A stretch of DNA of 64,000 bases from an uncultured Nitrospiraceae bacterium (GCA_964586075.1 CAZPGZ010000017.1:755-64754); one strand, 5' to 3'; counted from the first letter of the stretch, positions 1,054 through 60,104 are shown. Numbers and translations: made by a program. Notes: generated by a model from the letters alone, not told the origin.

Positions 1054-2775
1054 TCAATAGCTTCTATAGCGGTTGGTGATCGGGAAGCGCCGGTCTTTTC
1101 CTAATCCCCGTGCAGTAATTTTAACACCGGGAGGAGCCTGGCGACGTTTATATTCACTGGAATCAACAAGATGAATGACCCTCTCCACGGTCTTGCGGTC
1201 AAAACCCATGCTCAACATTTCATCGAAGTCCTTGTCGTCCTCTACGTATGCCTTGAGAATGGGATCGAGGAGATCATAGACCGGGAGCGAATCGCTGTCC
1301 TTCTGATTGGGACGGAGCTCCGCCGTGGGAGCCTTGACAAGCACTCGTTTTGGAATGACGGTTTTTCCCGCGAGACGGTTCACATATCGAGATACTTCAT
1401 ACACCAGGGTTTTCGGCACGTCCTTGATTACGGCAAAACCGCCCGCCATATCACCATAGAGGGTGGCGTACCCCGTTGCCATTTCACTCTTGTTTCCGGT
1501 CGTGAGTACCAGCCACCCGAATTTGTTCGAGAGCGCCATGAGAATGTTTCCCCGGATGCGCGCCTGCAGGTTTTCCTCGGTTACGTCCTGCCGGGTGCCT
1601 GCGAGTGCGCTGCGCAGCGTGTTCAAATAGGCATCGAAAGGCTGATGGATGGGGATGGTCAGCAATTTCATGCCCAGATTGCGCGCGAGGAGGATAGCAT
1701 CTTCGCGGCTTTCACGGGAGCTGTACGGAGACGGCATGAAAACACCGGCCACCTGCTCCTTTCCGATCGCCGCGCACGCCACGGCGGCAACCAAAGAAGA
1801 GTCGATGCCGCCCGAAAGCCCGATTACCGCGGATTTGAAGCCGTTTTTCCTGAGATAATCGCGAGTCCCGAGAACGAGCGCGTGATATACTTCCTGTACA
1901 GGAGAATATGGTTTTTCGATTCGTGGTGAAGGCAGCAGTTTTCTTCTTGATGCTCTGGTGGAGATGAAAACAGAATCGACGGAATCGCGGTGCTCCGGGG
2001 AAAGGAGTTCTGAAGCCGCGTCCTCGCCGCGGTTCGAAAGTGCGGGAAGCCTGACATCGCACGTAACGAAATCCTCCTCAAACTGTTTCCCTGCCGCAAG
2101 CACTTTTCCCTTCGGGTCAACGAGGAGACTGTGCCCGTCAAAAACAAGTTCGTCCTGCCCACCCACTGCGTTTGTATACGCAATGCAAATTCCATTATCA
2201 CGAGCCCGGTCGGCAAGCATCCTCATCCGCTCGCGTCCTTTTCCCTTATGATATGGAGAAGCGTTGATGTTAACGATGACTTCCGCCCCTGCCAGCGCCT
2301 GAGTACGTGTCGGTCCGTCCGGATACCAGATGTCCTCACAGACATTGATTCCGACATGAATACCATTGATTACGATGATCGGGCAGCGTTTGCCGGGCTT
2401 GAAATACCGATATTCGTCAAACACGCCGTAATTCGGAAGCAGCATTTTATGATAAACGTACAGCAGCTTTCCACCGGACATGACAGCCGCAGCGTTGTAC
2501 AGGTATTCGTTTACGTCGACAAAACCGACGACTGCTGTGATTCCCTGTGTGGCTTTGGTGATTTCCCGTAAGGTGCGCAGATTATCTTTGACAAACTGGG
2601 GTTTAAGCAGCAGATCTTCCGGTGGATATCCCGTGACAGCCAGTTCCGTGAACGCGACGATATCGGCGCCGAGTTTTTTTGCGCGGAGAATACACGCGAT
2701 AATTTTGTCCCTGTTGCCTTTGAGGTCTCCCACGGTAGGATTGATCTGTGCCATGGAAATGCGAAGAGTACGCAT
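1054..2775 (-). CDS. nadE: Glutamine-dependent NAD+ synthetase (nitrilase domain + NAD synthetase domain)
   Basis: 573 aa; N-terminal CN-hydrolase region (MAQINPTVGDL) and C-terminal PP-loop SGGIDSS motif. Confidence 0.88.
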   Translation of the reverse strand: MRTLRISMAQINPTVGDLKGNRDKIIACILRAKKLGADIVAFTELAVTGYPPEDLLLKPQFVKDNLRTLREITKATQGITAVVGFVDVNEYLYNAAAVMSGGKLLYVYHKMLLPNYGVFDEYRYFKPGKRCPIIVINGIHVGINVCEDIWYPDGPTRTQALAGAEVIVNINASPYHKGKGRERMRMLADRARDNGICIAYTNAVGGQDELVFDGHSLLVDPKGKVLAAGKQFEEDFVTCDVRLPALSNRGEDAASELLSPEHRDSVDSVFISTRASRRKLLPSPRIEKPYSPVQEVYHALVLGTRDYLRKNGFKSAVIGLSGGIDSSLVAAVACAAIGKEQVAGVFMPSPYSSRESREDAILLARNLGMKLLTIPIHQPFDAYLNTLRSALAGTRQDVTEENLQARIRGNILMALSNKFGWLVLTTGNKSEMATGYATLYGDMAGGFAVIKDVPKTLVYEVSRYVNRLAGKTVIPKRVLVKAPTAELRPNQKDSDSLPVYDLLDPILKAYVEDDKDFDEMLSMGFDRKTVERVIHLVDSSEYKRRQAPPGVKITARGLGKDRRFPITNRYRSY

Positions 2776-2827
2776 GAAGCTCCTTTAGTCTTTTGTCGGG
2801 GGGAAAGATGCTTTCCCCGCCGTAGTG

Positions 2828-4003
2828 CTATCGTGTAGAATAGTAGGCTCTTTTTGCTTCTTCCATAATCTGTTTCAGCGGGAGCTGTTCGCTTTCCGCG
2901 ATTTTTTTGCAGTCCTCATATTCAGGGGTCACCGTGAAAACTTCCTTGCCCTGTTTGCTCACTTTCAGCCTGATTCTGCCGTAGCATGTGTCCACTTCCG
3001 TGATTTCACGGAGCAGCTTTTTTCTGCGCACATCCTGGAGGCGGACGCCGATGCTCGTGGTTTCGCGAAACAGGGTATCAAGCATGGTGTCGACTTTTTC
3101 CTTGTCCGTCAGCACGGATAGCAGCACCGCCGGCCTTCCTTTTTTCATGGTGATGGGCGTGAAGTATACGTCTTGCGCCCCCTGCCGCATAAGTTTTTCA
3201 GCCACGTAGTCGTAAATCTGGGGGTTCATATCGTCGATATTGGTCTCGATGACAACCGACATGTCTTCTTCCCAGGAGGATGCGGCGGATTCACCAATCA
3301 TAAGCCGCAGGACATTCGGTGTGCCGGGGAAATCCTGGTCTCCTGCTCCGTAGGCTATCCGCTCAATATTCATGGCCGGCATGCGGCCGAAGGAGGCGCC
3401 GAGCGTGCTGATGATCGCCGCGCCGGTGGGGGTCGTAAGCTCAAATTTTGTCGAAGATTCATAAAAGGGGATTCCCCGCAGCATCTCAGCGGTTGCCGGG
3501 GCGGGTATGGGCAGAATGCCGTGAGCGGTTTTCACTGTTCCGGAACCCACGTTGACCGTAGAAGCGATGATATGCGATATGCCCAGAAGTTCAAGCCCTA
3601 TAACCGAGCCCACTATATCAACAATAGAGTCGACCGCACCGACCTCATGGAAATGAACGTCCTCTATCGTTGTGCCATGCACTTTGGCTTCCGCCTCCGC
3701 CAGACGGGTAAATATCAGTCCGCTTTTTTGTTTGACCGGCGCTGAGAGAGAAGAACTGCCGATAATTTTCAGAATGTCGGAAAGGTGGCGATGTTCGTGT
3801 GTAAGATGATGAATATCGACTCGCACTTTCGTCGCCGCAATGCCGGAGCGGGTGACTTTTTCAGATGTTATTTTGTATCCTGGAACGCTCAGTTTCTGAA
3901 GCTCCGAGCGAAGTGTGTTGATGTCCATTCCCGCGTCCACAAGGGCGCCGAGGGTCATATCGCCGGATATCCCGGAAAAACAGTCAAAATAGGCAATGGT
4001 CAT
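2828..4003 (-). CDS. larC: Nickel-pincer cofactor biosynthesis protein LarC (DUF111, nickel insertase)
   Basis: 391 aa; N-terminus MTIAYFDCFSGISGDM characteristic of LarC/DUF111. Confidence 0.8.
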   Translation of the reverse strand: MTIAYFDCFSGISGDMTLGALVDAGMDINTLRSELQKLSVPGYKITSEKVTRSGIAATKVRVDIHHLTHEHRHLSDILKIIGSSSLSAPVKQKSGLIFTRLAEAEAKVHGTTIEDVHFHEVGAVDSIVDIVGSVIGLELLGISHIIASTVNVGSGTVKTAHGILPIPAPATAEMLRGIPFYESSTKFELTTPTGAAIISTLGASFGRMPAMNIERIAYGAGDQDFPGTPNVLRLMIGESAASSWEEDMSVVIETNIDDMNPQIYDYVAEKLMRQGAQDVYFTPITMKKGRPAVLLSVLTDKEKVDTMLDTLFRETTSIGVRLQDVRRKKLLREITEVDTCYGRIRLKVSKQGKEVFTVTPEYEDCKKIAESEQLPLKQIMEEAKRAYYSTR

Positions 4004-4032
4004 GGATAGTATCCCTTTAATGGCGAGTTGTG

Positions 4033-4806
4033 TTATGCGCTACCGTCTGATGCATGCTCACCGAGCAGATTTATCCTGTGAGCCAGAACGCCTGCGCCAA
4101 AGCCGTTGTCTATGTTCATCACGGCAATGCCTGAAGCGCAAGAGTTGAGCATGGTAAGAAGAGGCGCCAGACCCTGGAACCCCGCACCGTATCCCACGCT
4201 GGTAGGAACTGCGATCACCGGCTTGTCTACCAGGCCGCCAACCACGGACGGAAGTGCACCGTCCATGCCGGCGACTACAACGACAACGCGGGCCTCATCA
4301 AGGATGTCGCGCTTGCTCAATACACGGTGGATGCCGGCGACGCCCACATCATAGACGGTTTTTACCGCGCTGCCGAGTGCTTCTGCCGTGACCGCAGCCT
4401 CCTCAGCCACAGGAATATCCGACGTCCCGCCGGTCATGATCAAGACGATGCCTTTGGTCAGCGTTGTTTTCGTTTGTCGGACAACAATCGCGCGGGAGCG
4501 TTCGTGGTACACGGCATGGCGGTTCAGTTTTTTTATTGCTTTATACATTTTATCAGATGCGCGTGTCGCGAGAACATCGCTTTTATGAGCCAGCATACGT
4601 TTTGCAATGCCCGCGACCTGTTCAGTTGTTTTTCCTTCACAATAGATGACTTCCGGCATCCCGTGTCGCAACTGCCGGTGATGGTCGATGTGCGCGTAGA
4701 CGACGTCTTCAAACGGCAAATGCCTGAGCTGTCTGAGTGCGGTCTCTACTTCGGTTTTCCCGTCGCGAACGTTCTGAAGCAGTTTCATGAGGTCTGATTT
4801 ATTCAT
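4033..4806 (-). CDS. larB: Nickel-pincer cofactor biosynthesis protein LarB (PurE-like NaAD carboxylase/hydrolase)
   Basis: 257 aa; PurE/AIR-carboxylase-like fold with N-terminal extension, adjacent to larC. Confidence 0.75.
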   Translation of the reverse strand: MNKSDLMKLLQNVRDGKTEVETALRQLRHLPFEDVVYAHIDHHRQLRHGMPEVIYCEGKTTEQVAGIAKRMLAHKSDVLATRASDKMYKAIKKLNRHAVYHERSRAIVVRQTKTTLTKGIVLIMTGGTSDIPVAEEAAVTAEALGSAVKTVYDVGVAGIHRVLSKRDILDEARVVVVVAGMDGALPSVVGGLVDKPVIAVPTSVGYGAGFQGLAPLLTMLNSCASGIAVMNIDNGFGAGVLAHRINLLGEHASDGSA

Positions 4807-9592: not shown

Positions 9593-10429
9593 TCACGAGA
9601 GCTGGTCGAACAGGCTGCCCATTGATCGCTGCGCATCGCACTCCTGTCTCCACGACACGCATTGCAGGAACGGATCCGCACCCCATTTTTTTTTAAAAAA
9701 AGTGACGCCCGGATCAATTCCTAAACCCAGGTTCACATATTGCTTGCCTTCTACCCGCGCATGCTCGATGATGTGCGCGAGCAGCAGGTCGGAGGCGCCC
9801 GGTACGTAGTGTCTGTGCGAGCGGAAATTGAACATATAAAACGCATAATGGCGCGCGCCGAACTCGGCGATATCGAAAGCGACCAGATTGCCGCAGGTGT
9901 TGCGCGCTTCGAAAACGACCGCGGTGTCGCACTTGGCATAGTTGGGTACACGCTTGAAAATGAACCGCTGAGCTTCATCAAGGGAATGTGTGCGCATGAA
10001 GGTTCTGAGCATCCATTTGTGCGACCAGCGGACCTTTCCGATGGAAACGGATATTTCGCGGCGTGCGCGCTTCAGCATGTTTTCTGTTTTCTTCGGGATG
10101 GTCGATTGAGACAGATCGAGGCGATAGTACGCATCAAGAGGTGCGGGCGTGAAATCATCGGGCGGAGCAGTAAGGGGGGGCGCGATAATAGAAAAAGAGT
10201 CAGGCACAAAACGCTCTTTTGCCCCATCGAGCGCTTTCAGCATTCTCGATTCATCAGCGCCTCCGGACAATGGATAGCCGACGAAAATCAAATGCGTCCC
10301 GGCAACATGGACGACAAAATCGTCGGCTAAAAACGGCTCGGTTTGTGAGATCGTGGTGACATAATGCGGGAGGTGTTCAGGCACATATGCCTGTTCGATG
10401 ATATATCCCTGTTCTTCCGGTGTAATCAT
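9593..10429 (-). CDS. FemAB/BioF2-like GNAT-fold protein (Acetyltransf_6-like), paralog A
   Basis: C-terminal NLGLG...FFKKKWGA motif typical of CelD/FemAB-like GNAT proteins; start ATG overlaps upstream TGA (ATGA). Confidence 0.5.
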   Translation of the reverse strand: MITPEEQGYIIEQAYVPEHLPHYVTTISQTEPFLADDFVVHVAGTHLIFVGYPLSGGADESRMLKALDGAKERFVPDSFSIIAPPLTAPPDDFTPAPLDAYYRLDLSQSTIPKKTENMLKRARREISVSIGKVRWSHKWMLRTFMRTHSLDEAQRFIFKRVPNYAKCDTAVVFEARNTCGNLVAFDIAEFGARHYAFYMFNFRSHRHYVPGASDLLLAHIIEHARVEGKQYVNLGLGIDPGVTFFKKKWGADPFLQCVSWRQECDAQRSMGSLFDQLS

Positions 10430-11256
10430 GAGGACACCTGCGTAACGGCGTATCCTGCGTCGCGGAATAGGCTGGTCACCCCGGGTACATGAGGAAAACC
10501 GACAAAAGCAAGAGCATCCTCGCATGCGAAAACCGGCCGGATCCGCTCATAAAGAACTCGGTCGCGCGCCGCGAGCGCGGCGCCGCGCGCGGCAAAACGT
10601 GCTGTCAAGTCCATTATTGTATCCAGATCGCCGTCGAGGTACATCTTGACATACTTATTTTTGTAATCAGGCCAGTTCGCGACATCGTTCAATTGCCGCG
10701 CGAGGCGGTCTAAGGGAATTTTATCAAGCACATCAAGCTGCTCTTCGAGCGTTTCTAGAAAGCAGAGTTTTTTTCCGGCCGCCCGGGCGATCCGGTATGC
10801 TTCCATGTCAACTGAGTGATTCCAGTCGAGGTACGTACGCCAGATCGCAAAAAACGCGGCCCAGGGACGCACCCCGCGCGTGAATGAATCGAAGTAAACT
10901 GGCCCCTTTTCCTCCAATGACAGGAGCCACGTGTCTCCTGTTCTCCCCAGTCCGTCACGCTCGCGCAGAATGCAGTCAATCACAGTAATTGCTTCGGGCG
11001 TGAGGAGATCGAGAAACGCCTGATTATTTCCGTCATGTCTTCCGTGCTCTGCAATTCTCCCGAAACTTGCCTCATCGAGCGGGCCTTCGAACATCACGGT
11101 CGAAACGTTACGGACCAGGCGCTTCAGCGGTTTGCGAAAGCTGTATGGAAAAAAATGAGCCGTACCTACGAGATGCGACGCCTGCCCGTTTTTCTCCACG
11201 CGCCAGATCATGCGAAGCGGTTTATGCATTGTCCAGGGGAAAAGCTTCATTTTCAT
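10426..11256 (-). CDS. TraB/GumN family protein
   Basis: VGTAHFFPYSF...VMFEGPLDE motifs of pfam01963 TraB/PrgY/GumN; start trimmed to MKMKLFPW. Confidence 0.6.
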   Translation of the reverse strand: MKMKLFPWTMHKPLRMIWRVEKNGQASHLVGTAHFFPYSFRKPLKRLVRNVSTVMFEGPLDEASFGRIAEHGRHDGNNQAFLDLLTPEAITVIDCILRERDGLGRTGDTWLLSLEEKGPVYFDSFTRGVRPWAAFFAIWRTYLDWNHSVDMEAYRIARAAGKKLCFLETLEEQLDVLDKIPLDRLARQLNDVANWPDYKNKYVKMYLDGDLDTIMDLTARFAARGAALAARDRVLYERIRPVFACEDALAFVGFPHVPGVTSLFRDAGYAVTQVSS

Positions 11257-11276
11257 ACACGGTAATTGTTTGCGAT

Positions 11277-12197
11277 TTACGGTTTCCCGTCCAAGAGCGC
11301 GCCAAGCAGGGAAATCGGCGCCGGAGGTCCATAATAACATTCGCAGAATTCGTAATGCAAGTACGGTCTGCCGCCCCATTTTGCTTTAAAGCGACGAATG
11401 CCTTCGTTAACACCCAGACCCAGGTTGATACTTTGTTTGCCGCGGTCCCGCGCGGAATCGATCATGTCGGCAAAGAGCAGATCAGAGGCGTGTGGTATAT
11501 AGTTTTTTTTGGAATGGCATCCCAGCACATACGCGTCAAATTGTTCAGCCGCGGTCTCGACAATAAAAAAAGCAGCTAGTGTGCCGTGCCGGCTTCGTGC
11601 GTTCAACACCTGCGCTGTTTTGCATTGAGCTATGTAGTCGGGCATGGACCGGTACAACTCTTTAATCATGAGGGGAAGGTCCTCTCGGCTCTCCAGTTCT
11701 TTTGCCAGTTGTTCATGCTCGCGCGTGAATGCTCGCGTGCGCTCTATGGTCAGTGTCCGGGCTGCCTGGTCCACTTTGCACTGCAAGGCTGAGGGAATAA
11801 TTGACTGCGAGATATCGAGTCGCAGATATTGATCGCTCTGGCGCACGCGACAAGATTTGGCAAGCGAAGGAGGTATTTCAGGACCGATAAACCAGAAATA
11901 ATCGGAATTGTGCTGATCGCGAACCTGTTTGATCAGTTTGTCGCAGGCGCTTGCTATAAACGGCGCCTGGAGAGGATATCCGATAAAAATCAGCCAATCG
12001 TCTTTCGCTAAGCAGAGATGATCTTCGATGAAAAAAGGCTCGGCGTGTGAAATTGCCGCCATCAGAGAAGGGATCTGCTCCGGTACACAGGCATGCGCCA
12101 GGGCGAAGCGTTCATTAATCGGATTGAGCGGAGGATGGTCGCAACGGTCCATTGGTTTTAGCTCGATTCTGTTCGCATACGCGAGGGCTGCGTACAC
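11277..12197 (-). CDS. FemAB/BioF2-like GNAT-fold protein (Acetyltransf_6-like), paralog B
   Basis: Collinear similarity to paralog A (CVPEQIP/YVPEHLP, FIGYPL/FVGYPL, YLRLDISQS/YYRLDLSQS, NLGLGV..RRFKAKWGG); alternative start ATG at 12152. Confidence 0.5.
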   Translation of the reverse strand: MYAALAYANRIELKPMDRCDHPPLNPINERFALAHACVPEQIPSLMAAISHAEPFFIEDHLCLAKDDWLIFIGYPLQAPFIASACDKLIKQVRDQHNSDYFWFIGPEIPPSLAKSCRVRQSDQYLRLDISQSIIPSALQCKVDQAARTLTIERTRAFTREHEQLAKELESREDLPLMIKELYRSMPDYIAQCKTAQVLNARSRHGTLAAFFIVETAAEQFDAYVLGCHSKKNYIPHASDLLFADMIDSARDRGKQSINLGLGVNEGIRRFKAKWGGRPYLHYEFCECYYGPPAPISLLGALLDGKP

Positions 12198-19755: not shown

Positions 19756-20631
19756 TCAGGGATTTTGGGGTGGAATACCCCGCAAAACTTCGTTCACAAT
19801 AAATGATCTGATATGTTCCTGATCTTTTTCGCTGATTTCGACAAACTGGAGCCCTACTCCCGGTTCGCTGTAGGGGCCGGTCCGGGCCGGACAGTTATAT
19901 ACCACTGCTGCCTCTGTGAGGACGCGGTGGCCGTTTAGGTCAACCTGGAGCGAGAGCCGTAGGTTCCGGACGGCATTCCGTGTTGTACGAAGAAACAAGC
20001 CTCGTTCAGACAGTTCCAGAGCATATGCTCCCTCAAAGTCCTCGAGCGGCATATTGGTAACTTTGACCGGCTGGGTCGTCCTGATCCTCATGCTTGTGCG
20101 GGGCGTTTTTTCCGCCGCCACCTGAACAGCGCGATAAAGCAGTTCTGGTGCAATGGGGCGACAAAGGCATTCTACAGCTCCCAGCTCGAAGCAACGCTGT
20201 TTTACAGCCAAGTCATCCTGGTCACTTATGGCGATGACGGGGAGGACGGCCGTGGGTGGATAGTCTCTGAGTTGCTGCATAAAGTCAAAACCGCTCTTTC
20301 CCTTGGGCGGAAGAGCGATAATTATAAGTGCAGGAAGTGCCACGGACGCCATCTGAAGCGCTTCTTCGGCAGTCGAGGCTTTGAAAATCTGATAATTAAA
20401 ACGCTGAAGGAGCAGGGACGTATAGGCGAGGCTGCTCGGGTCGCCGTCTACAACCAACATGAATCGGCTTCTGCGATTTTGTCTGCTGAGTGAGGCGGCT
20501 ATTTTGTGCTCAACCAGGTTCATCTCAACCTCAGAATTGCCCTTATCACCAGCGCATGCATCGGTAGTCTGTTTGAACAGATTTTCAGAAAAACAGTGGA
20601 AACGGAAAATAGCATAATTGATTTTTCTCAC
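19756..20631 (-). CDS. Receiver (degenerate) + PilZ domain protein, paralog 1
   Basis: REC-like N-domain (MLVVDGD) but phosphoacceptor position reads ALP; PilZ motifs RTSMR and LSERG. Confidence 0.65.
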   Translation of the reverse strand: MRKINYAIFRFHCFSENLFKQTTDACAGDKGNSEVEMNLVEHKIAASLSRQNRRSRFMLVVDGDPSSLAYTSLLLQRFNYQIFKASTAEEALQMASVALPALIIIALPPKGKSGFDFMQQLRDYPPTAVLPVIAISDQDDLAVKQRCFELGAVECLCRPIAPELLYRAVQVAAEKTPRTSMRIRTTQPVKVTNMPLEDFEGAYALELSERGLFLRTTRNAVRNLRLSLQVDLNGHRVLTEAAVVYNCPARTGPYSEPGVGLQFVEISEKDQEHIRSFIVNEVLRGIPPQNP

Positions 20632-21389
20632 GCATCTACCGGTGGTATCCCTCTGACAACCTCGGTTCTGACAAAGCGTCGGATAAGGTCCTGGTCGTGG
20701 GATGCAATTTGGGCGAACTGAAGCCCCATCCCCGGCTCGCGGTACATGCCTCTGCCGGTCCGGCTACTATAGAGGACAATTGCAAGCACTTGTATTTTTT
20801 TATCATACAGATGGAATTGACAGGTCAGCTGGGTATGCACACTGGCAGGCTTATGGGTCCGGACAAACATTCCGCCTTCTGATAAATCAGTAGTGCACGC
20901 GTTATCAAAACAGTCGGAAGACGAATCAGTTGCATGAATGGGGAGCAGCGTTCTGATGCGAATATGGGACCGCGGGGTGGTCTCTATGGTTGTTTGAACG
21001 GCCTGATACAATTGCTCAGGTGAAATTGGCTTTGTCAAACACTTTGAAATTCCCTGCTGCAGACATTGTTTTTCGCCGATCAGGTCTTCTTGAGTTCTCA
21101 GGGCGATAAGGGGCACGTCCGCCGTGCTGGGGCTCTGCATGAGCTGTTTCATAAAAGCGAGGCCGTTCTCTTCCGCAAGGTCCGTTGCTATTATCACAAG
21201 AGACGGGACTGCGACCGCTGTCATGGTAAGGGCTTCTTTTGCTGTGGAAGCCGTAAGCGTCTTGTATGCAAAACGCTGGAGCAGCGCGGAAACGAAACAA
21301 AGGTGGTCTACGTTGCTGTCTACAACAAGAAGAAAACGGCCTTTTCGATCAGATTTGTTCCATTCAGCAAGTGTTGCATTCTCATGCAT
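20628..21389 (-). CDS. Response-regulator receiver + PilZ domain protein, paralog 2
   Basis: REC (LLVVDSN, IIATDL, T, KP) + PilZ (RSHIR, DLSEGG); start trimmed to MHENAT with GGAGG RBS. Confidence 0.7.
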   Translation of the reverse strand: MHENATLAEWNKSDRKGRFLLVVDSNVDHLCFVSALLQRFAYKTLTASTAKEALTMTAVAVPSLVIIATDLAEENGLAFMKQLMQSPSTADVPLIALRTQEDLIGEKQCLQQGISKCLTKPISPEQLYQAVQTTIETTPRSHIRIRTLLPIHATDSSSDCFDNACTTDLSEGGMFVRTHKPASVHTQLTCQFHLYDKKIQVLAIVLYSSRTGRGMYREPGMGLQFAQIASHDQDLIRRFVRTEVVRGIPPVDA

Positions 21390-21485
21390 GCCTTTCCTCC
21401 TAGAAAATCCTACAGCAGAAACAACGAAAAAATACGGCAAGACAGCCGTTTTTTTACCGGTATTCTGATTATTTAATCCCTGTTG

Positions 21486-22244
21486 CTAATCGGATAAATA
21501 TTCAATGCCTCGTGTAATCTCGCTCAGAATAAACTGCCGAATAATCTCTCTGTCTGCGGGTGAAATCCTGCGGAACTCAAGGCCCATGCCGAGTTCTTCG
21601 GAAGGATTTCCTATGACATGGTTGCTGTAGAGAACAACCGCTTCAGTAGTGACAAGATTCTTGTCTAATTGTAGCTGAAGAACGAGTCGCGTGTCAATGG
21701 GCGCAGGTCGTGTCGTCGGTAAGAAAATGCCGCGTTCCGAAAGTATGGCTGCAGATGCTCCCCCCAGTCCGTTGAACGACAGGTTGTTCACTTTTACAGG
21801 CAAAAGGGTCTTAATGCGAATGGTGCTGCGGGGTGTTGCTTCAAGAGCTGTCTGAATGATACGATACAGCCTGTCTATGTTGACCGGCGACGGAAGAGAC
21901 TCTGCAACGTGCAATTCACGACAGCGTTTTTCCACCTGTAAATCAATCTGTTTCTGCAATACGATGATAAAAACAGAAGCAATGTAAGGGGTCTGGCGCA
22001 CTTCACGAATGAACTCGAGGCCGGTCATATCAGGAAGGTCCAAGGCAGTGATAATGAGGGACGGACTGGACACAGCGGATATGGCAAGAGCTTCTCTGGC
22101 ATTTGCAGCGGTGCAGATCTGGTAGCCCAGCCGCTGCAGAATAATGGACAGATAGTTAAGATTATATGCATCGCTGTCTACCAGCAGCAGAAACTTGCTG
22201 TTTCTGTCTGTTTTTCGGGGAGCTGTGGTTTTGCTGGAATTCAT
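21486..22244 (-). CDS. Response-regulator receiver + PilZ domain protein, paralog 3
   Basis: REC (LLLVDSD, IITALDLPDMTG) + PilZ (RSTIR, LSERG). Confidence 0.7.
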   Translation of the reverse strand: MNSSKTTAPRKTDRNSKFLLLVDSDAYNLNYLSIILQRLGYQICTAANAREALAISAVSSPSLIITALDLPDMTGLEFIREVRQTPYIASVFIIVLQKQIDLQVEKRCRELHVAESLPSPVNIDRLYRIIQTALEATPRSTIRIKTLLPVKVNNLSFNGLGGASAAILSERGIFLPTTRPAPIDTRLVLQLQLDKNLVTTEAVVLYSNHVIGNPSEELGMGLEFRRISPADREIIRQFILSEITRGIEYLSD

Positions 22245-22333
22245 AATCGTTTATAGTCTTACCATGTTTCACGTTTTAGAGTAAGCCGGCGCTGCTTATC
22301 GTATAGATTTCGGGATATCCCGTAAAGCATTCT

Positions 22334-23143
22334 TTATCGCAGAATCAGGCTGATGGCATTTGTGCTGCATGCCCTGCGGCATAAACCGCATCCGAAGCAG
22401 TTGTGCGGATCAATGCACGCGAGAGATCTTCCGTTTTTAAAAGTGCCGGTGATTGCTTTAAAATGACATTCAGAGGCGCAAAGGCCGCAACCTGTGCAGA
22501 GCAACTCATTTACGTTGGCAACGTGCTCGGCGCGCTGCATGGTCTCTACTCCAATCTGCGCTAGGGTTTTCAAAGCAAGGCATTCGTGGGGAGAACAGTT
22601 GCAAATTGCGCCGATGAAAGGGGTCATCATCGTCCAGATGGTATGAACTGCTCCCTGGGCATCCATTTCCTTCATCTGGGCCACGGCCTCATCCGAAGAA
22701 AGTTGTTCAAGGCCCTCGGAAGAGGCTGTTCCAAAGGAGGCCATATCAATACCGTTGTACCAGGGGTCGGAGCCGTAGCTGACGGCATAGCAGCACCGGA
22801 TTTCTTTTTTTTCCATGCTCCAGCGGCAGGCGCACGGCATGCGTACAACAGTCAAGGCCTGTTTTACCACCGTGCTGATTTCCTCAATGGGCAAAACCTG
22901 GCCGAAATGTTCAACCTTCGCTTTTGCAACGAGGGCTTTTGCCACGGTTTCGGGAAGCTTACCTTTCTTTTTATAGATTGTTTCCAGTCTGCCCAGTGTT
23001 TGAAACCCTTCTGCGAATGTGGTTGTCAGAAAATTTTCTATATACTGCTGGCGACGGATATCCGACAGCAGATCATGGGAATAATTTGCAGCATTTTTGT
23101 ACCATATTTTTCCTTCACCATGGTGTGTGCAGAATTCACACAT
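22334..23143 (-). CDS. 4Fe-4S dicluster domain Fe-S protein, unknown function
   Basis: 269 aa; N-terminal CEFC..H motif, central CxC/CC cysteines, C-terminal CTGCGLCASEC and CFGCGLCRRAC ferredoxin motifs. Confidence 0.6.
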   Translation of the reverse strand: MCEFCTHHGEGKIWYKNAANYSHDLLSDIRRQQYIENFLTTTFAEGFQTLGRLETIYKKKGKLPETVAKALVAKAKVEHFGQVLPIEEISTVVKQALTVVRMPCACRWSMEKKEIRCCYAVSYGSDPWYNGIDMASFGTASSEGLEQLSSDEAVAQMKEMDAQGAVHTIWTMMTPFIGAICNCSPHECLALKTLAQIGVETMQRAEHVANVNELLCTGCGLCASECHFKAITGTFKNGRSLACIDPHNCFGCGLCRRACSTNAISLILR

Positions 23144-23408
23144 AAATACTCCAAACTACAAAAAAGTAATGTTTCATGCATATTGTATAGGAAAAAAAAC
23201 TTGCTGACAATATTAATTGAGCTTTTTCCATTTAAAAAAACGGGGATACTTCCGGGAAGTGCATGGCGGAAACTCGGTTAGACGGCAAAGAGTACAGAGA
23301 TTTTATTTGAAGTGCGTCAATGATAATATGCGTATGGTTTGCAGGTTATATTCGGAGAGAGATGGCTGGCAAGCATTCCTTATACGCCAAACGCTGTCAC
23401 TGTTGACA

Positions 23409-24899
23409 TTACGTAAGGTATTGTTTTACGTTAATTTTAGCTACATTATTATCAATAGTGCCGGAAATAGTACGCTTGTATTTTCCTCCCGCTGTTTCAA
23501 GAAGACTGACTTCAGAGCCATCCTTCTTTTCTGAACCGTCGAATTTGGTAAGAAGAAGCACCCGGGGACGCAAAAGGTCACGAGTCTGATGCCTGACCAG
23601 CCCGATTTCACCGGTGTCCAGTTTCACGAGCGTGCCAGCAGGAAACAATCCCATCATATTAACAAAGGCTTTCACCAGTGTAGGATCGAAGGCAGTGCCC
23701 CGCTTTTTTACTATAATGCGAATTGCCTGCTCCGGCGATATCTGGACTTTATAATATACCCGTGCAGCGGTAAGTGCTTCGTAGGCGTCCGCGAGGGTAA
23801 TAATATGTGAGAAGGGGTGCTGTTGCAGTCTGTCGTCAATCCAGGGGTAGCCTTTATGATTTCCATGCTGATGATGCTCAAATGCAGCAACCATGGCGAG
23901 TTTCGTCATCCCCGGCGTATGGGAGAGAATCAACGCCCCTTCGATGGGATGCCGTTTGACGATCTCCCATTCCTCATCCGTTAACTTGTCCGGTTTATTG
24001 ATAATCTCGTGAGGCACATTCACTTTGCCAATATCATGCAGTAGTCCGGCTACTCCCAGTGCCGCGATCTGCGCTTTACTGAATGAAAGAAAAGATCCGA
24101 GAGATATGGCAAGGATGGCAGTGTTTACCGAATGCGCAAACGTATATTCATCATACATTTTTATGCTGGTCAGGCCCATCAGAGCGTCCCGGTTGTTCAA
24201 AATGTCATCAACCATGGTTTGAACAGTCGTATTGATCTTCCGCATGTTGATCGCTTTGTCCAAATGGACCGTTTCCACCATCTCTTTGACTGTTTCTACG
24301 GCCTCCATAAAAATTTTTGCCGCCTGTTTTTTGCCCTCTTTGAGGGCGCCGCTGACGCCTTTATCAACAACCATTACCCGATGAAGTTCAACATGAGCGA
24401 TCCCCTCTTTTTCGAGGACCTCCGTGATTCCACCCAGAGAGACGAAAAATGCAGGTTCTTTGTTCATCAGAAGGGCAAACCTGACCAGTTCTTTCTGGGT
24501 GAGTTCCGGTTTAAAAATAATTCCGCTTACTTCGAGACCGGTAAACTGTTCCATGAGCTGGGCAAGACCTTGATCCACGGGAATGGAGAGGGTCTCAAAA
24601 AACAGCTCGCCGCCCACAAGGTAGAAGGCGACTTTATCCCGGTCCGTCATCAGTGTCGTAATTGTTCCGAGAAGCTTTTCTGCAGATGCACGAAGGGATG
24701 GATGCTCTTCAGGATACAGAGTCGCATTTCTCATTACCGCGGACAGCTGCTGGAAGGCGGTTTTTGCTGCGCCTATCAGGTGCTGTTTGGCGATAAAGGA
24801 TTCACGATTCTGGTCGGGCCTGTCAAGCTGCGGTTCTGCCATTGCCCTGTCTCCTTGAGATTTCTTCCATGGCCCGCTGCGCAGCGGTCCGGAGCTCAA
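23409..24899 (-). CDS. HD-GYP domain c-di-GMP phosphodiesterase with DUF3391-like N-terminal domain
   Basis: HDIGK...HHQHGNHKGYP HD-GYP signature; 5' end overlaps upstream HEAT gene. Confidence 0.8.
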   Translation of the reverse strand: MSSGPLRSGPWKKSQGDRAMAEPQLDRPDQNRESFIAKQHLIGAAKTAFQQLSAVMRNATLYPEEHPSLRASAEKLLGTITTLMTDRDKVAFYLVGGELFFETLSIPVDQGLAQLMEQFTGLEVSGIIFKPELTQKELVRFALLMNKEPAFFVSLGGITEVLEKEGIAHVELHRVMVVDKGVSGALKEGKKQAAKIFMEAVETVKEMVETVHLDKAINMRKINTTVQTMVDDILNNRDALMGLTSIKMYDEYTFAHSVNTAILAISLGSFLSFSKAQIAALGVAGLLHDIGKVNVPHEIINKPDKLTDEEWEIVKRHPIEGALILSHTPGMTKLAMVAAFEHHQHGNHKGYPWIDDRLQQHPFSHIITLADAYEALTAARVYYKVQISPEQAIRIIVKKRGTAFDPTLVKAFVNMMGLFPAGTLVKLDTGEIGLVRHQTRDLLRPRVLLLTKFDGSEKKDGSEVSLLETAGGKYKRTISGTIDNNVAKINVKQYLT

Positions 24900-26901
24900 G
24901 CTGAAGTTTCCGGGGTTTCCACCATCGAATGCGGGTATATCTCTTTAAAAAATCTGCTGCGTCCCGACCACCGATTTTGGCGAGCGACTTAATAGCTTCT
25001 ATCGTATGATCCTGTTCCCTTTTTTTAATCGGTCGTTTTTCGAGAAAAGCGATAAGAAACCGGGATTCTTCAGCGCTGGCATGGGAGATGCCGGCAAAGC
25101 CCCGAATTGCCATTACCCGGATGTCCTCCTCCGGGTCTTCCAGGAATTTCGCGAGAAGCCCGGCCGCCTTTTTTCCGCCCAGGGAAACCAGTCCCTTGAC
25201 AACTTCTTGCCGTATTCTGGCATCCGGATAATCCGCGACTTTTTGGAAATAGGTGAATGCCTGTTCCGATTTGCTTTCCCCCAGAATGCTTACAACATTA
25301 CGAACAACATACCAGCGATGGTCCGAAAGATATACGCTTAACAGCTGGAGCTGATTCTTCCCAAAATCCTTCAGAAGCCCGAGGAAAAAGACGCGCATCG
25401 ACCTGTCCTGCTCTTCGGCCAGGAGTTCCAGCAGAACTCCCGTGGTTTCGGTTTCGAAAATGGTCAGGTACGCATAGGCAGAGCGGTATTGTGGAGAACC
25501 TTTTGGGTGGGTGCGCATGGCATTGATCGTTTCGGCAATGGTGGCTTTGGAAACAAATTTTTGAATGGCCTCTTCCATGCGGGGTTTAAAAGCGGTTTCT
25601 ACCGGCATTTGAAACGCCCGAAAGATGAGAGAGGCAAGATCATAATCTTGTTGTTTCAGAAGATAGCTGAGAATATCCTCAAGTTGATGGACAATGCCGG
25701 AGAAGACTTCAAGATCATGCTCCTCGGTTGAAGAGCGGTGAGGGTTTCTTACCTGGGGGAGAAGGAAAATGAGGGTGCGTACCGCGGCTTCAATAATGTC
25801 CGCTTCAAGGCCCAATTCTCCCATCGTTTTAAGCTCTTCCATCTCCTGTGTGGTGTATTCTCCCAGTTCTCGCGCCATTTCACCAATATCGGCCGGAACC
25901 GGTTCGGCAACAAGGGTTTGCGGAGAGGGGGGCGGGCCCGATGGTGTCGGTTTTTTTTCTGACGATTTTTTCAAAAGCGCGGTAACCTGTTTCAGATTCC
26001 AGACATTGGAAAAACGGCCGGACAAAATTTCATGAAGTTCATTCGGCACGTGTTCCTCAATTTCTGCTTTTTGTTCGTTTGCCGTTTCTGCGTCGAAGTC
26101 GCCATACAGTTTTCCGCCGATAAGTCCGTCCCGCAACGGCGGTTCAAGTGAAAGGGCTGATTGCGCCAGTTTTTCGAACATGGCATCGCTCTGGTTCGGA
26201 TATTTCTCGCGGATTTCGCGGCCTGCTTCCTGATACAGTGAAAAGAGCCTGTCTTCAACGCTTTCGTGTTCCTCACGGGTCCTTCTGGCGGCTTCCGCCA
26301 TGCCGGCTCCGAAGCCTTCCGGATCGCTCATTAAATCACTGAGAACCAGAGTGCGGCCCGAAGGCAATAGGTCTTGCGGAACCGGGGTCTGAGCAAGCTT
26401 TTGCGCGTTTGCTTTTGCGTCTGTAGCGGCATCTGATTTTACGGAGATGATTTCTCCGAGACCTGCTTCAGTGACCTTGATATTCAGGGCATCCGACTCC
26501 CAGAGAATCGAAGAGATTCCGTTTTTCATTCCCAATTCTTCCGGTGAAAGCGCAAGTGCTTTCAGCAGCAACAGGAGTTCTGCTTCTTGCAGTCCCTCGT
26601 TGAAGAATATTTCCCGCATTCCTTTTGCGAACAGATCCTGCGCCACGGGCTTATTGACTTGCGTATCTTTGCCTACCGGGATGGTTTCGTAGGTAAAATA
26701 TGTTTTTTGAATGCCAAGATGGTACACCGGTGTGGTTTCTAGAAAACGAGACAGTGCTTCGTAGGATTTTTTTATGGACTGCGAATACATGGGATTATTG
26801 GACGGATACAGCTTTACCGCCCTGATAGCGGCAATCAGGCTCCGCATAACATCCGGGACATCAGGAGGGATTGTTCCCTGAGGTTTTGCTTCTTCTTGCA
26901 T
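24823..26901 (-). CDS. HEAT-repeat (PBS-lyase-like) protein
   Basis: about 690 aa; C-terminal HEAT repeats (VVRNVVSILG, IRQEVVKGL, IRVMAIRGF); N-terminal region resembles the N-terminus of the adjacent HD-GYP protein; start trimmed to MQEEAK. Confidence 0.6.
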   Translation of the reverse strand: MQEEAKPQGTIPPDVPDVMRSLIAAIRAVKLYPSNNPMYSQSIKKSYEALSRFLETTPVYHLGIQKTYFTYETIPVGKDTQVNKPVAQDLFAKGMREIFFNEGLQEAELLLLLKALALSPEELGMKNGISSILWESDALNIKVTEAGLGEIISVKSDAATDAKANAQKLAQTPVPQDLLPSGRTLVLSDLMSDPEGFGAGMAEAARRTREEHESVEDRLFSLYQEAGREIREKYPNQSDAMFEKLAQSALSLEPPLRDGLIGGKLYGDFDAETANEQKAEIEEHVPNELHEILSGRFSNVWNLKQVTALLKKSSEKKPTPSGPPPSPQTLVAEPVPADIGEMARELGEYTTQEMEELKTMGELGLEADIIEAAVRTLIFLLPQVRNPHRSSTEEHDLEVFSGIVHQLEDILSYLLKQQDYDLASLIFRAFQMPVETAFKPRMEEAIQKFVSKATIAETINAMRTHPKGSPQYRSAYAYLTIFETETTGVLLELLAEEQDRSMRVFFLGLLKDFGKNQLQLLSVYLSDHRWYVVRNVVSILGESKSEQAFTYFQKVADYPDARIRQEVVKGLVSLGGKKAAGLLAKFLEDPEEDIRVMAIRGFAGISHASAEESRFLIAFLEKRPIKKREQDHTIEAIKSLAKIGGRDAADFLKRYTRIRWWKPRKLQLELRTAAQRAMEEISRRQGNGRTAA

Positions 26902-27022
26902 AGTGTTCAGAATATCATAAGAGTGTTTTAGTGTCAAAAAAAATTGGGGAAGATGCTGACTACGAAACAGCAGCCAAAACAATCACAAAAACGCAGAACG
27001 CAGCGTGTTTCGGGACGGGGTG

Positions 27023-58973: not shown

Positions 58974-60104
58974 ATGTCATTAGCACGGAAAATAAAAGAA
59001 TACGCTCTGGACCTCGGCTACTGCAAGGCGGGCATCACCACGACGGACGGTTTTCCCGACTACAGTGAAGATTTAAAATCCCGGCGTGAAATGTATTCCT
59101 TCTATATTGATTCGACCCGCAAACCGCTGGAAGCGGCGAATCCACGAAACATTTTTCCTGCAGCTAAGTCGATAGTATCGGTCGCCTATGATTACGCGTC
59201 CCTGTCTTTTCCGGAAAAATTGCTGGGTAAGATCGGCCGGATTTATCAGGCACGGTGCTATATGGCCCCTCCGCATCGTATCAACGGCGCCCGCTCTGAA
59301 TTGCTGAAAAAATTTTTGGAACAAAACGGCTGCCGGGTAAGCCCGTATGAGCATTGGCACCCGGAGCGGCTGGTAGCCGCCCGTGCCGGGGTCTCTCGTT
59401 ACGGCAAGAACAATTTTTCGTATGTCGAGGGAATCGGGTCGTTTGTGGTGCTCAGCTCTTTTGTCGTGGATGCCGAACTTGAGCAGGATGCCCCCACGCT
59501 GGAGGTACAGTGTCCGGACAATTGCAAGGCGTGCATGAACGCCTGCCCTACCGGCGCGATTTACGAACCGCTCAAACTGAATCCCCGGCGGTGCATCTCG
59601 TATAACAACTGGTGGACCAATAACCGGCCCGGGGTGAGCTGCACCATTCCTGCAGAAATCAGGGAAAAAATGGGGACCCGGGTTCACGGCTGCGACGTTT
59701 GTCAGGAAGTCTGTCCCCGCAATCAGGCGAGGTTGAAAATGAAACTGCCTCCGGACCCCTTCCTTGAGCAGATCGCACAGGATTTCAGTCTGCGCAAAAT
59801 GCTGAACATGACTGATGACTTTTATGCGCAAAGAGTGCAGCCTTTGATGTATAACTATATAAAGGAAAAGAAATGGTTCCAGAGAAATGCCGCCATCGCG
59901 CTCGGCAATACGAAAGATCCCGGATATATACAAGATCTCCGCACGGCCATGCAGGATCCGGAAGATGTTGTCCGGGGATATTCCGCCTGGGCTTTGGGCA
60001 GAATCGGAGGCAGCGAAGCGAAGCAAATTCTTGAACTGAGCCTGAGCCGGGAAACGTCAGATGATGCCAGAAAAGAAATTGAAGCGGCCCTTGCCGAGGC
60101 CTGA
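58974..60104 (+). CDS. queG: Epoxyqueuosine reductase QueG-family protein (DUF1730 + 4Fe-4S + C-terminal HEAT-like repeats)
   Basis: Collinear matches to E. coli QueG motifs: LARKIKEYALDLGY, CKACMNACPTGAI, RRCISY, GCDVCQEVCPRN, RNAAIALGN. Confidence 0.7.
   Translation: MSLARKIKEYALDLGYCKAGITTTDGFPDYSEDLKSRREMYSFYIDSTRKPLEAANPRNIFPAAKSIVSVAYDYASLSFPEKLLGKIGRIYQARCYMAPPHRINGARSELLKKFLEQNGCRVSPYEHWHPERLVAARAGVSRYGKNNFSYVEGIGSFVVLSSFVVDAELEQDAPTLEVQCPDNCKACMNACPTGAIYEPLKLNPRRCISYNNWWTNNRPGVSCTIPAEIREKMGTRVHGCDVCQEVCPRNQARLKMKLPPDPFLEQIAQDFSLRKMLNMTDDFYAQRVQPLMYNYIKEKKWFQRNAAIALGNTKDPGYIQDLRTAMQDPEDVVRGYSAWALGRIGGSEAKQILELSLSRETSDDARKEIEAALAEA

Follow-up and report, generated by a model that had tools for sequence, protein, structure and literature searches.

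The window analyzed here, a 64,000-nucleotide stretch of DNA from an uncultured Nitrospiraceae bacterium, carries six consecutive genes on the minus strand. An open reading frame (ORF) check located all six between positions 19756 and 26982. The first encodes a 692-aa HEAT-repeat protein (24823 to 26901), followed by a 477-aa HD-GYP protein (23409 to 24842), a 269-aa Fe-S protein (22334 to 23143), and three proteins that join a receiver-type domain to a PilZ domain, namely, RP3 (252 aa; 21486 to 22244), RP2 (253 aa; 20628 to 21389), and RP1 (255 aa; 19756 to approximately 20523). For the HEAT, HD-GYP, Fe-S, RP3, and RP2 genes, the shorter start codons called by gene callers on identical public contigs were adopted, while the start of RP1 was inferred from orthologs. 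A preliminary description of the region had named the same genes and domains and proposed HMM searches for them; the PilZ, Response_reg, HD_5, and HEAT_2 models all match, and every Pfam match exceeds its gathering score. The co-orientation emphasized in that description is real for all six genes. However, it is not peculiar to them, because the flanking genes lie on the same strand (RNase Y, YmdB, and XseA upstream and a HemN-like radical-SAM gene downstream). The reported lack of a diguanylate cyclase or histidine kinase agrees with our scan: none of the window ORFs of at least 200 aa that were scanned contains a GGDEF or HisKA/HATPase domain.

The HEAT and HD-GYP genes form an old, translationally coupled pair. 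The two reading frames share 20 nt where HEAT ends and HD-GYP begins, and the ribosome-binding site of HD-GYP (AAGGAGA) lies within the HEAT coding sequence; the remaining intergenic gaps measure 265, 89, 96, and 104 nt. Full-length orthologs of the HEAT protein (45 to 96% identity) occur in 49 genome loci, and 42 of the 49 species-level genomes carrying the HEAT gene (Nitrospirota and Syntrophales) also have the HD-GYP gene directly 3' of it, at most about 60 nt apart and usually overlapping. A distant pair of 755 and 485 aa shows the same arrangement. The genes that follow HD-GYP in other Nitrospirota vary and include ispA-dxs-tlyA, hrpB, and a B12-radical SAM gene.

The large HEAT-repeat protein itself, recognized by HEAT_2 at 69 bits, consists of an N-terminal domain, an acidic and proline-rich linker, and C-terminal HEAT_2 repeats. 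Its N-terminal domain, which contains an LYPxxxP motif (residues ~16 to 146; minus strand, 26464 to 26856), is homologous to the N terminus of the HD-GYP protein (residues ~27 to 156; minus strand, 24375 to 24764), as judged from an hhalign probability of 95% (E value of 3.4e-8) and from reciprocal HMM matches at locus L107. These profile comparisons define a domain of approximately 130 aa that is common to both proteins and had no prior annotation; it matches no Pfam family even at an E value of ≤10. A search with this domain matched 2946 representative proteins at an E value of ≤1e-3. Among 75 of the matching proteins that were scanned, 57 contain HEAT_2, 4 GGDEF, 3 MshEN, 2 HD_5, and 1 HisKA/HATPase domains, which ties the shared domain to c-di-GMP signaling proteins.

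The HD-GYP gene most likely encodes a catalytically active, metal-dependent phosphodiesterase that acts on c-di-GMP or a similar cyclic dinucleotide. Pfam model HD_5 (PF13487) matches with 89 bits across residues 246 to 408 of the 496-aa ORF, delimiting a catalytic domain (minus strand, 23676 to 24164) with the motifs HDIGK, KRH, EHHQHGNHKGYP, and DAYEAL. The HHQHGNHKGYP motif on which the c-di-GMP hydrolase assignment had been based (residues 323 to 333 of the 477-aa protein) is intact, as are the HD, HH, and GYP elements generally, with HDIGK at residue 269. These motifs are conserved in 50 distinct orthologs: HDIGK is found in 41, whereas 8 have HDMGK or HDVGK, and HHQHG...GYP prevails, alongside a few variants (KAYP, for example). 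The catalytic domain matches the solved HD-GYP structures PmGH (4mcw), V-cGAP3 (5z7c), PA4781 (4r8z), and Bd1817 (3tm8) with E values of 2.6e-22 to 3e-7, and their HD, H, HH, D, and GYP motifs are all conserved. HD-GYP enzymes use iron centers, and equivalents of the PmGH metal ligands (H, HD, H, HH, and D) are present. In the alignment, Tyr replaces PmGH Glu185, reportedly a ligand of the third iron (Bellini et al., 2014), a change that may make the metal site binuclear. Which substrate is preferred is uncertain because the second-best match after PmGH (E value of 2.6e-22) is the cGAMP-specific phosphodiesterase 5z7c (E value of 2.3e-18).

The third gene agrees with its earlier description as a 269-aa multi-cysteine Fe-S protein. 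Among its 18 cysteines are two complete CxxCxxCxxxC motifs (C216/219/222/226 and C249/252/255/259), which lie in a C-terminal 2x[4Fe-4S] ferredoxin domain (minus strand, about 22337 to 22531; Fer4, 39 bits; Fer4_7, 30.6 bits). Profile matches to PDB entries are to ferredoxin domains only and are confined to residues ~205 to 269. The N-terminal ~200 aa match no recognized family and contain nine invariant cysteines (C2, C5, C104, C106, C117, C118, C181, C183, and C188). With more than 1100 clusters, the best 120 of which are 68 to 93% identical, the Fe-S family far exceeds the RP family in size and spread and is also better conserved. The gene can also be solitary, as at another locus, where it lies between uvrB and uvrC.

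The three RP proteins, reported as back-to-back paralogs, are true paralogs rather than chance resemblances, judging from a pairwise identity of 41 to 44% over their full length (BLASTP E values of 1e-66 to 1e-74). Each has about 250 aa and lacks a DNA-binding or enzymatic output domain. The Response_reg model (PF00072; cutoff, 30.2 bits) scores 49.8, 52.5, and 53.0 bits and the PilZ model (PF07238; cutoff, 22.5 bits) 32.2, 36.9, and 24.2 bits in RP1, RP2, and RP3, respectively. The preliminary description credited all three with both PilZ motifs. This is correct for RxxxR (RTSMR, RSHIR, and RSTIR in RP1, RP2, and RP3), which all aligned members of the family contain, with both arginines invariant in a 41-sequence alignment. 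The (D/E)xSxxG motif, however, is found in only two of the three. Measured against [D/N]hSxxG, RP2 fits (DLSEGG), RP1 shows a conservative change (ELSERG), and RP3 departs, with Ile in place of D/N (ILSERG). The c-di-GMP binding motifs thus appear fully canonical in RP2, nearly canonical in RP1, and doubtful in RP3. Outside the HD-GYP-adjacent clade, V, I, or M occupies this first position in most of the family, part of which may therefore not bind c-di-GMP.

The receiver halves deviate more strongly. In all three copies, the equivalent of the CheY phospho-acceptor D57 is Ala in the alignment. D12 is kept, D13 is replaced by G, S, and S in RP1, RP2, and RP3, and the equivalents of T87 and K109 are S/R/Q and R/K/S, in the same order. 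Of 88 distinct RP genes taken from the fetched loci, 41 have Ala at the D57 position, 19 Ser, 19 Asp, and 5 Glu, and database homologs show a similar pattern; the D13 position is Ser or Gly in 82, and its Asp is lost in 87 of 88, including in those that keep D57. Judged by these residues, the REC domains of RP1 to RP3 are pseudo-receivers, incapable of phosphorylation at the canonical site. No cognate kinase would be expected for them, which explains the absence of a histidine kinase. The label of receiver-PilZ receptors is therefore apt insofar as both models match and the proteins are candidate c-di-GMP receptors, but it does not extend to phosphorylatable receivers. Most family members also have a Cys conserved at the position of CheY Y106, the receiver "switch."

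The phylogeny of the paralogs, proposed earlier as a means to date the duplications, indicates that the triplication is old. RP positions 1, 2, and 3 fall into separate ortholog clades across four lineages (L003, L053, L052, and L056), with RP1 grouping with copy 3 of L056 in 200 of 200 bootstraps, and no similarity among the paralogs was found at the DNA level. The age of the copies and the constancy of their positions suggest divided labor, with different partners or c-di-GMP thresholds for the three proteins. Arrays of two to seven REC-PilZ copies with pseudo-receivers also occur at other loci and often adjoin the same Fe-S gene. An HD-GYP gene ahead of such an array is likewise not unique to this genome, as the orders HD-GYP-FeS-RPx3/4, HD-GYP-HPF-RPx7, and HD-GYP-RPx5 are found elsewhere.

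The domain types at this locus were already known; the gene arrangement and the shared N-terminal domain are undescribed. REC-PilZ fusions are listed by Amikam and Galperin (2006), as cited in bioRxiv 10.1101/814665, and form "cluster 10" of a PilZ similarity network (bioRxiv 10.1101/2020.02.11.943704). The RP proteins resemble these in architecture: about 250 aa, with a receiver-type domain at the N terminus, PilZ at the C terminus, and no other output. However, the catalogued proteins are uncharacterized and histidine kinase partners are assumed for them, whereas the RP proteins lack the phospho-acceptor and an intact acidic pocket and are encoded in tandem arrays of two to seven stable paralogs. 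PixA (MXAN_1087) of Myxococcus xanthus, which binds c-di-GMP in vitro and acts on cell polarity via protein contacts (PMC8316039), is likewise a two-domain PilZ and receiver protein without a neighboring kinase, but it has the reversed order PilZ-REC, an intact phosphorylatable Asp180 with its partner residues, and a single gene. According to a table in PMC10333796, receiver folds that respond to c-di-GMP include the CheY-like Cle proteins and the ShkA pseudo-receiver of Caulobacter. These offer a parallel of receiver folds governed by c-di-GMP instead of phosphorylation, with several paralogs and an output through protein contacts, the RP side of which is predicted. They differ in that c-di-GMP sits on the receiver fold itself or on an Arg-rich tail, while the RP binding motifs lie on a separate PilZ domain. 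HapZ/PA2799, MapZ, and YcgR are single- or di-domain PilZ adaptors that regulate partners when bound to c-di-GMP, and HapZ binds a REC domain. The RP proteins are similarly small PilZ proteins without catalytic output; unlike in these adaptors, the REC-like domain is fused to PilZ itself.

The six genes are not one co-conserved module. Four lineages, the most distant at about 64% HEAT identity, share the order HEAT-HDGYP-FeS-RPx3/4. The neighborhood comparison called for by the preliminary description upholds the HEAT/HD-GYP pair, but the six-gene set is restricted, with Fe-S and RP genes behind HD-GYP in only one Nitrospirota subclade. Within the 49-genome set, these genes lie within 10 kb of HEAT in two genomes, the window's own lineage and one close relative. 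As for strong internal terminators, named there as an argument against a single operon, only a weak terminator-like hairpin (5-bp stem and T-run; minus strand, 21434 to 21449) was found, between RP3 and RP2, and the 21 terminator-like sites in the region are no excess over shuffled sequence (16.4 ± 4.1). A boundary is instead hinted at upstream of the Fe-S gene, where the 265-bp gap contains a promoter-like site (TTGTCA-17-TACAAT; minus strand, 23182 to 23210; 10 of 12 consensus matches). Both L003 and L053 (the latter being the lineage at 84% HEAT identity) retain this sequence. By this consensus match, the predicted Fe-S and RP unit probably has its own promoter. The gap matches no Rfam family, and in L052 it extends to as much as 1.2 kb and includes an extra gene.

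On balance, the locus probably consists of two separable units, in which a c-di-GMP phosphodiesterase unit (HEAT and HD-GYP) adjoins a lineage-specific array whose c-di-GMP effectors would work independently of phosphorylation (Fe-S, RP3, RP2, and RP1). In the first unit, the shared N-terminal domain would bring the HEAT and HD-GYP proteins together or give both the same input. From this domain and the gene coupling, we infer that the HEAT protein may scaffold or regulate the enzyme. In the second, the RP proteins would be c-di-GMP-gated adaptors that work via protein contacts, with the pseudo-receiver as the contact surface. The Fe-S protein may partner with the RP proteins or be their target, which is the weakest step of this proposal.

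An unlikely alternative is that the adjacency is functionless. Here, a PilZ-like adaptor family would have expanded beside the rny-ymdB-xseA housekeeping area and a housekeeping Fe-S gene, and many RP proteins, perhaps including RP3, would no longer bind c-di-GMP and would act through protein contacts only. In the HD-GYP tree, every full-length RP-adjacent locus falls into one clade, so the HD-GYP/RP adjacency arose once and may persist by descent alone. The variable genes 3' of HD-GYP in other Nitrospirota, the V/I/M substitutions, and the size, conservation, and occasional solitary position of the Fe-S gene point the same way, and PilZ proteins that do not bind c-di-GMP have precedents such as PlpA and tPilZ. 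Nevertheless, RxxxR occurs in every family member, the second motif of RP2 is fully canonical, the arrays are retained with stable positional orthologs, and the Fe-S/RP linkage is kept through three different rearrangements (FeS-RPn, RPn-FeS, and RP..FeS-RPn).

We consider it improbable that the six genes form one module or operon in which the Fe-S protein redox-tunes an iron-dependent HD-GYP enzyme and the three REC-PilZ proteins read the c-di-GMP level. Such a relay would fit the consecutive, co-oriented genes, their order in four lineages, and the iron centers of HD-GYP enzymes, as well as the second PilZ motif, which begins with D or E in 15 of 19 RP copies of HD-GYP-adjacent arrays versus 1 of 15 elsewhere. 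However, the 2-of-49 linkage, the single origin of the adjacency, and the gap with its conserved promoter-like site all speak against it. The preliminary description had also seen the triplicated array as wired to HD-GYP and a redox protein. A specific wiring of the Fe-S gene to HD-GYP is not supported, because the Fe-S gene accompanies RP arrays at loci without HD-GYP and is missing from two HD-GYP-adjacent arrays (HD-GYP-HPF-RPx7 and HD-GYP-RPx5). That the RP proteins act as conventional response regulators with a PilZ output, served by an orphan histidine kinase encoded elsewhere as proposed for PixA, is very improbable despite the above-threshold REC matches, the kinase-free neighborhood of PixA, and the Asp kept at D57 in 19 of 88 genes, since RP1 to RP3 all carry Ala at D57 and G/S at D13, T87 and K109 are changed in most copies, and nearly the whole family, D57-keepers included, has lost D13.

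Beyond the two-unit arrangement, a wider reading would combine two propositions, that the LYPxxxP domain is a new, widespread signaling domain of c-di-GMP networks and that the RP array is a graded or hetero-oligomeric c-di-GMP read-out onto the conserved multi-cluster Fe-S protein. That both hold together is speculative and rather unlikely. If they did, the LYPxxxP domain would let HEAT scaffolds team up with cyclic-dinucleotide enzymes and control them, and a second messenger would be linked to redox metabolism in anaerobic Nitrospirota. The Cys at the receiver switch position is also cited in this wider reading.

Six consecutive minus-strand ORFs were found in the window as reported in the preliminary description. 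In gene order, they encode a HEAT-repeat protein (HEAT; 24823-26901), an HD-GYP protein (23409-24842), a 269-aa Fe-S protein (22334-23143), and three paralogous proteins of ~250 aa with a receiver-type (REC) and a PilZ domain (RP3, 21486-22244; RP2, 20628-21389; RP1, 19756-~20523). On identical public contigs, the gene starts are shorter, yielding 692 aa for HEAT, 477 aa for HD-GYP, and 253 aa for RP2. All previously assigned domains were recovered in an HMM check with Pfam scores above the gathering threshold: HEAT_2 in HEAT, HD_5/HD in HD-GYP, Fer4/Fer4_7 in the final ~60 residues of the Fe-S protein, and both Response_reg and PilZ in every RP protein. The HD-GYP protein carries the signature HDIGK ... 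EHHQHGNHKGYP, and its catalytic domain matches solved HD-GYP enzymes, including PmGH (4mcw; E = 2.6e-22), as well as the cGAMP phosphodiesterase 5z7c (E = 2.3e-18). Proteins of the window share 93-99% identity with those of a 3.26-Mb Nitrospirota MAG chromosome (OY760142.1). In agreement with the earlier statement that the window has no diguanylate cyclase or histidine kinase, a domain scan of essentially all its ORFs of at least 200 aa returned no GGDEF and no HisKA/HATPase match. A hybrid kinase is located downstream in one relative (L053; L-numbers denote fetched loci of relatives).

Using the HEAT protein as an anchor, 49 species-level genome loci were fetched. The HD-GYP gene directly follows HEAT in 42 of them, mostly with overlapping reading frames, and the remaining seven are truncated at contig ends or have fragmented matches. 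The pair occurs in Nitrospirota and Syntrophales/Smithella, and the same arrangement is displayed by a far more distant pair of 755 and 485 aa. In Nitrospirota, the pair lies downstream of rny-ymdB-xseA and is followed by variable genes, such as ispA-dxs-tlyA, hrpB, and a B12-radical-SAM gene. The usual content of the xseA/ispA neighborhood is xseA-xseB-ispA-dxs; in many Nitrospirota (L010, L016, L017, L020, L021, L034, L035, and L038), the pair sits between xseA and ispA-dxs-tlyA, with downstream gene names read from cluster sequences, not from Pfam matches. The last ~40 residues of the HEAT protein (24823-26901, minus strand) contain an Arg/Trp-rich stretch, RxRWWKPRK, which lies beyond any Pfam match and in which W660, W661, and R664 are invariant across 15 orthologs. 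No earlier description of an HD-GYP/HEAT partner pair was found in the literature.

HEAT and HD-GYP share a homologous N-terminal region of ~130 residues. This homology is visible by profiles only, as direct BLASTP between the two proteins gave nothing significant. Profile-profile comparison of the N termini yielded a probability of 95% (E = 3.4e-8, 127 columns), and in a distant pair (L107), the HMM of each N-terminal domain matches the other protein, with E values of 4e-14 and 7e-11. The shared domain is covered by neither Pfam (E ≤ 10) nor NCBIfam (E ≤ 0.01) and has no structural match in the PDB. When its profile was queried against 1.84 billion representative proteins, 2,946 matches were obtained at E ≤ 1e-3, of which 361 had E ≤ 1e-10. 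Pfam analysis of 75 matched proteins revealed HEAT repeats in 57, a share inflated by a profile built mostly from HEAT-type sequences, together with GGDEF in 4, HD-GYP in 2, MshEN in 3 (2 with a T2SSE ATPase), AAA_16 in 4, and HisKA/HATPase in 1. Even so, its repeated presence on c-di-GMP enzymes and receptors is notable. Judging from sequence, it may act as a pairing or shared-input domain. Across two phyla, the pair unites a predicted HD-GYP phosphodiesterase and an obligate HEAT-repeat partner with a common N-terminal domain. Given its presence on GGDEF, HD-GYP, and MshEN proteins, this domain is a new candidate for a role in sensing or pairing.

Pairwise identity among RP1, RP2, and RP3 is 41-44% from end to end (E = 1e-66 to 1e-74), and their DNA sequences no longer resemble one another. 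When aligned to CheY, the D57 phospho-acceptor is replaced by Ala in the REC domains of RP1, RP2, and RP3. In addition, the D13 position is Gly or Ser, and T87 and K109 are mostly altered. Across 88 distinct RP genes from the fetched loci, the D57 column contains Ala in 41, Ser in 19, Asp in 19, and Glu in 5, and D13 is Ser/Gly in 82; 103 database homologs follow the same D13/D57 pattern. This degeneration is a trait of the RP family, and the window RECs are pseudo-receivers, for which the lack of a kinase in the window is expected. The site equivalent to the CheY switch residue Y106 is Cys in 68 of the 88 family members; among the window copies, RP1 and RP2 share this Cys and RP3 carries Ser.

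With regard to c-di-GMP binding motifs, RxxxR is present in all three window RPs, as previously claimed, and throughout the aligned family. The (D/E)xSxxG motif attributed to all three holds for RP2 (DLSEGG) and RP1 (ELSERG) but not for RP3 (ILSERG). Compared to the published second PilZ motif, [D/N]hSxxG (bioRxiv 10.1101/814665), only RP2 is fully canonical. The first position of this motif is D/E in 15 of 19 RP copies from HD-GYP-adjacent arrays and V/I/M in 14 of 15 RPs from other arrays or single genes, a contrast for which phylogeny is a confounder. As the RP proteins contain no DNA-binding or catalytic domain, their output is expected to proceed via protein contacts.

In a neighbor-joining (NJ) tree, each window RP has orthologs at the matching array position in four lineages (L003, L053, L052, and L056), and RP1 clusters with copy 3 of L056 in 200/200 bootstraps. 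The paralog phylogeny proposed in the preliminary description for dating the duplications therefore places the triplication before the split of these lineages, with every copy retained. Orthology of the Fe-S-adjacent RP copy between FeS-RPn and RPn-FeS arrays gained only 69/200 NJ bootstraps, too few to claim it. The RP proteins would represent a receiver-PilZ family that has abandoned phosphorylation and expanded to stable arrays with as many as seven members, and these arrays offer a natural system to study the division of one messenger among parallel effectors.

The preliminary description read the six genes as a single c-di-GMP module that could be a redox-tuned relay. Among the 49 HEAT-anchored loci, Fe-S/RP homologs within 10 kb of HEAT are confined to the window's own species; one close relative also has them, with a truncated HEAT contig and HD-GYP-FeS-RPx3 (three tandem RP genes) on a separate contig. 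A second set of loci, anchored on the RP and Fe-S proteins, revealed the HEAT-HDGYP-FeS-RPx3 order in three further lineages, at HEAT identities of 84%, 74%, and ~64%, the last with four RP copies. Other arrangements, HEAT-HDGYP-HPF/CSD-RPx7 and HDGYP-RPx5, are without the Fe-S gene, and RP-PCuAC-RPx3-FeS and RP-PCuAC-..-FeS-RPx2, near accA, are without HD-GYP. Moreover, an RPx4 array alone, single RP genes elsewhere, and a solitary Fe-S gene flanked by uvrB and uvrC were found. In an NJ tree of HD-GYP proteins, from which the truncated L078 gene was left out, the full-length RP-adjacent loci all group in a single clade. HD-GYP/RP adjacency therefore arose once, and a single gain does not support functional coupling. 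The HEAT and HD-GYP reading frames share 20 nt in the window, and an AAGGAGA motif precedes the HD-GYP start. HD-GYP and the Fe-S gene are separated by 265 nt containing a promoter-like TTGTCA-17-TACAAT site, which is kept in the two nearest lineages. No riboswitch or other known RNA was matched by Rfam in the intergenic gaps between 18 and 31 kb, including the 265-nt gap, even at E ≤ 1. We conclude that the genes form at least two neighboring units, HEAT plus HD-GYP and Fe-S plus RP; the relation of the genes to c-di-GMP stands, the single redox-wired six-gene module does not. This adds an undescribed arrangement of known families and does not overturn current ideas.

Several variations accompany these loci. 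In the arrays near accA (L063, L064, L079, L080, and L082-L084), the first RP is in every case followed by the PCuAC/LpqE-like lipoprotein gene, and the Fe-S gene ends or splits the array. One lineage has an extra 290-aa gene between HD-GYP and Fe-S (L052, 4023-4895; L069, 3-263), with N-terminal zinc-ribbon-like CxxC pairs, that is missing in the window and L056. A PEP-synthetase regulatory kinase/phosphorylase gene (PF03618) adjoins a lone RP gene in one genome, and in another it comes right after the RPx7 array (L059, L060/L061).

Known ferredoxin-domain matches cover only residues ~205-269 of the Fe-S protein. Nine Cys are invariant in the first ~200 residues, a part for which neither Pfam nor the PDB yielded a family. 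The family comprises more than 1,100 clusters and is far more conserved (68-93% identity for the best 120) than HEAT (45-75%) or RP (35-65%). Because the Fe-S/RP linkage persists through three different arrangements, there is moderate evidence that the Fe-S protein is functionally tied to the RP proteins rather than to HD-GYP. Alongside the RP arrays and the HEAT/HD-GYP pair, this very conserved protein with its nine extra cysteines is the third point open to direct testing.

To our knowledge, c-di-GMP signaling in Nitrospirota and Syntrophales is almost unstudied. The PilZ adaptor HapZ has a REC domain as its binding partner. REC fusions of PilZ were already listed at the first definition of the domain, as cited in bioRxiv 10.1101/814665, and a similarity-network study contains a cluster of 163 REC-PilZ proteins with assumed kinase partners (bioRxiv 10.1101/2020.02.11.943704). 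None of the REC-PilZ proteins in this literature is characterized. The nearest studied protein is PixA of M. xanthus, which binds c-di-GMP in vitro; however, it differs from the RPs in its PilZ-REC domain order and intact Asp180 (PMC8316039). Receiver folds responding to c-di-GMP instead of phosphorylation have precedents in Cle and ShkA of Caulobacter (PMC10333796).

Elsewhere on the minus strand, a run of three ORFs (310, 317, and 306 aa; 9593-12197), in which neighbors overlap slightly, was analyzed with Pfam; the middle one belongs to the TraB/PrgY/GumN family, and the outer two have no Pfam match. NAD synthase, nickel-insertion (LarC-like), and AIR-carboxylase-like (LarB-like) genes lie side by side (1054-4806, minus strand) and may be nickel-pincer cofactor genes. 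A second HEAT-repeat protein (58974-60104, plus strand), unrelated to the HEAT/HD-GYP finding, combines Fer4_16 and HEAT_2 domains in a manner similar to the epoxyqueuosine reductase QueG.
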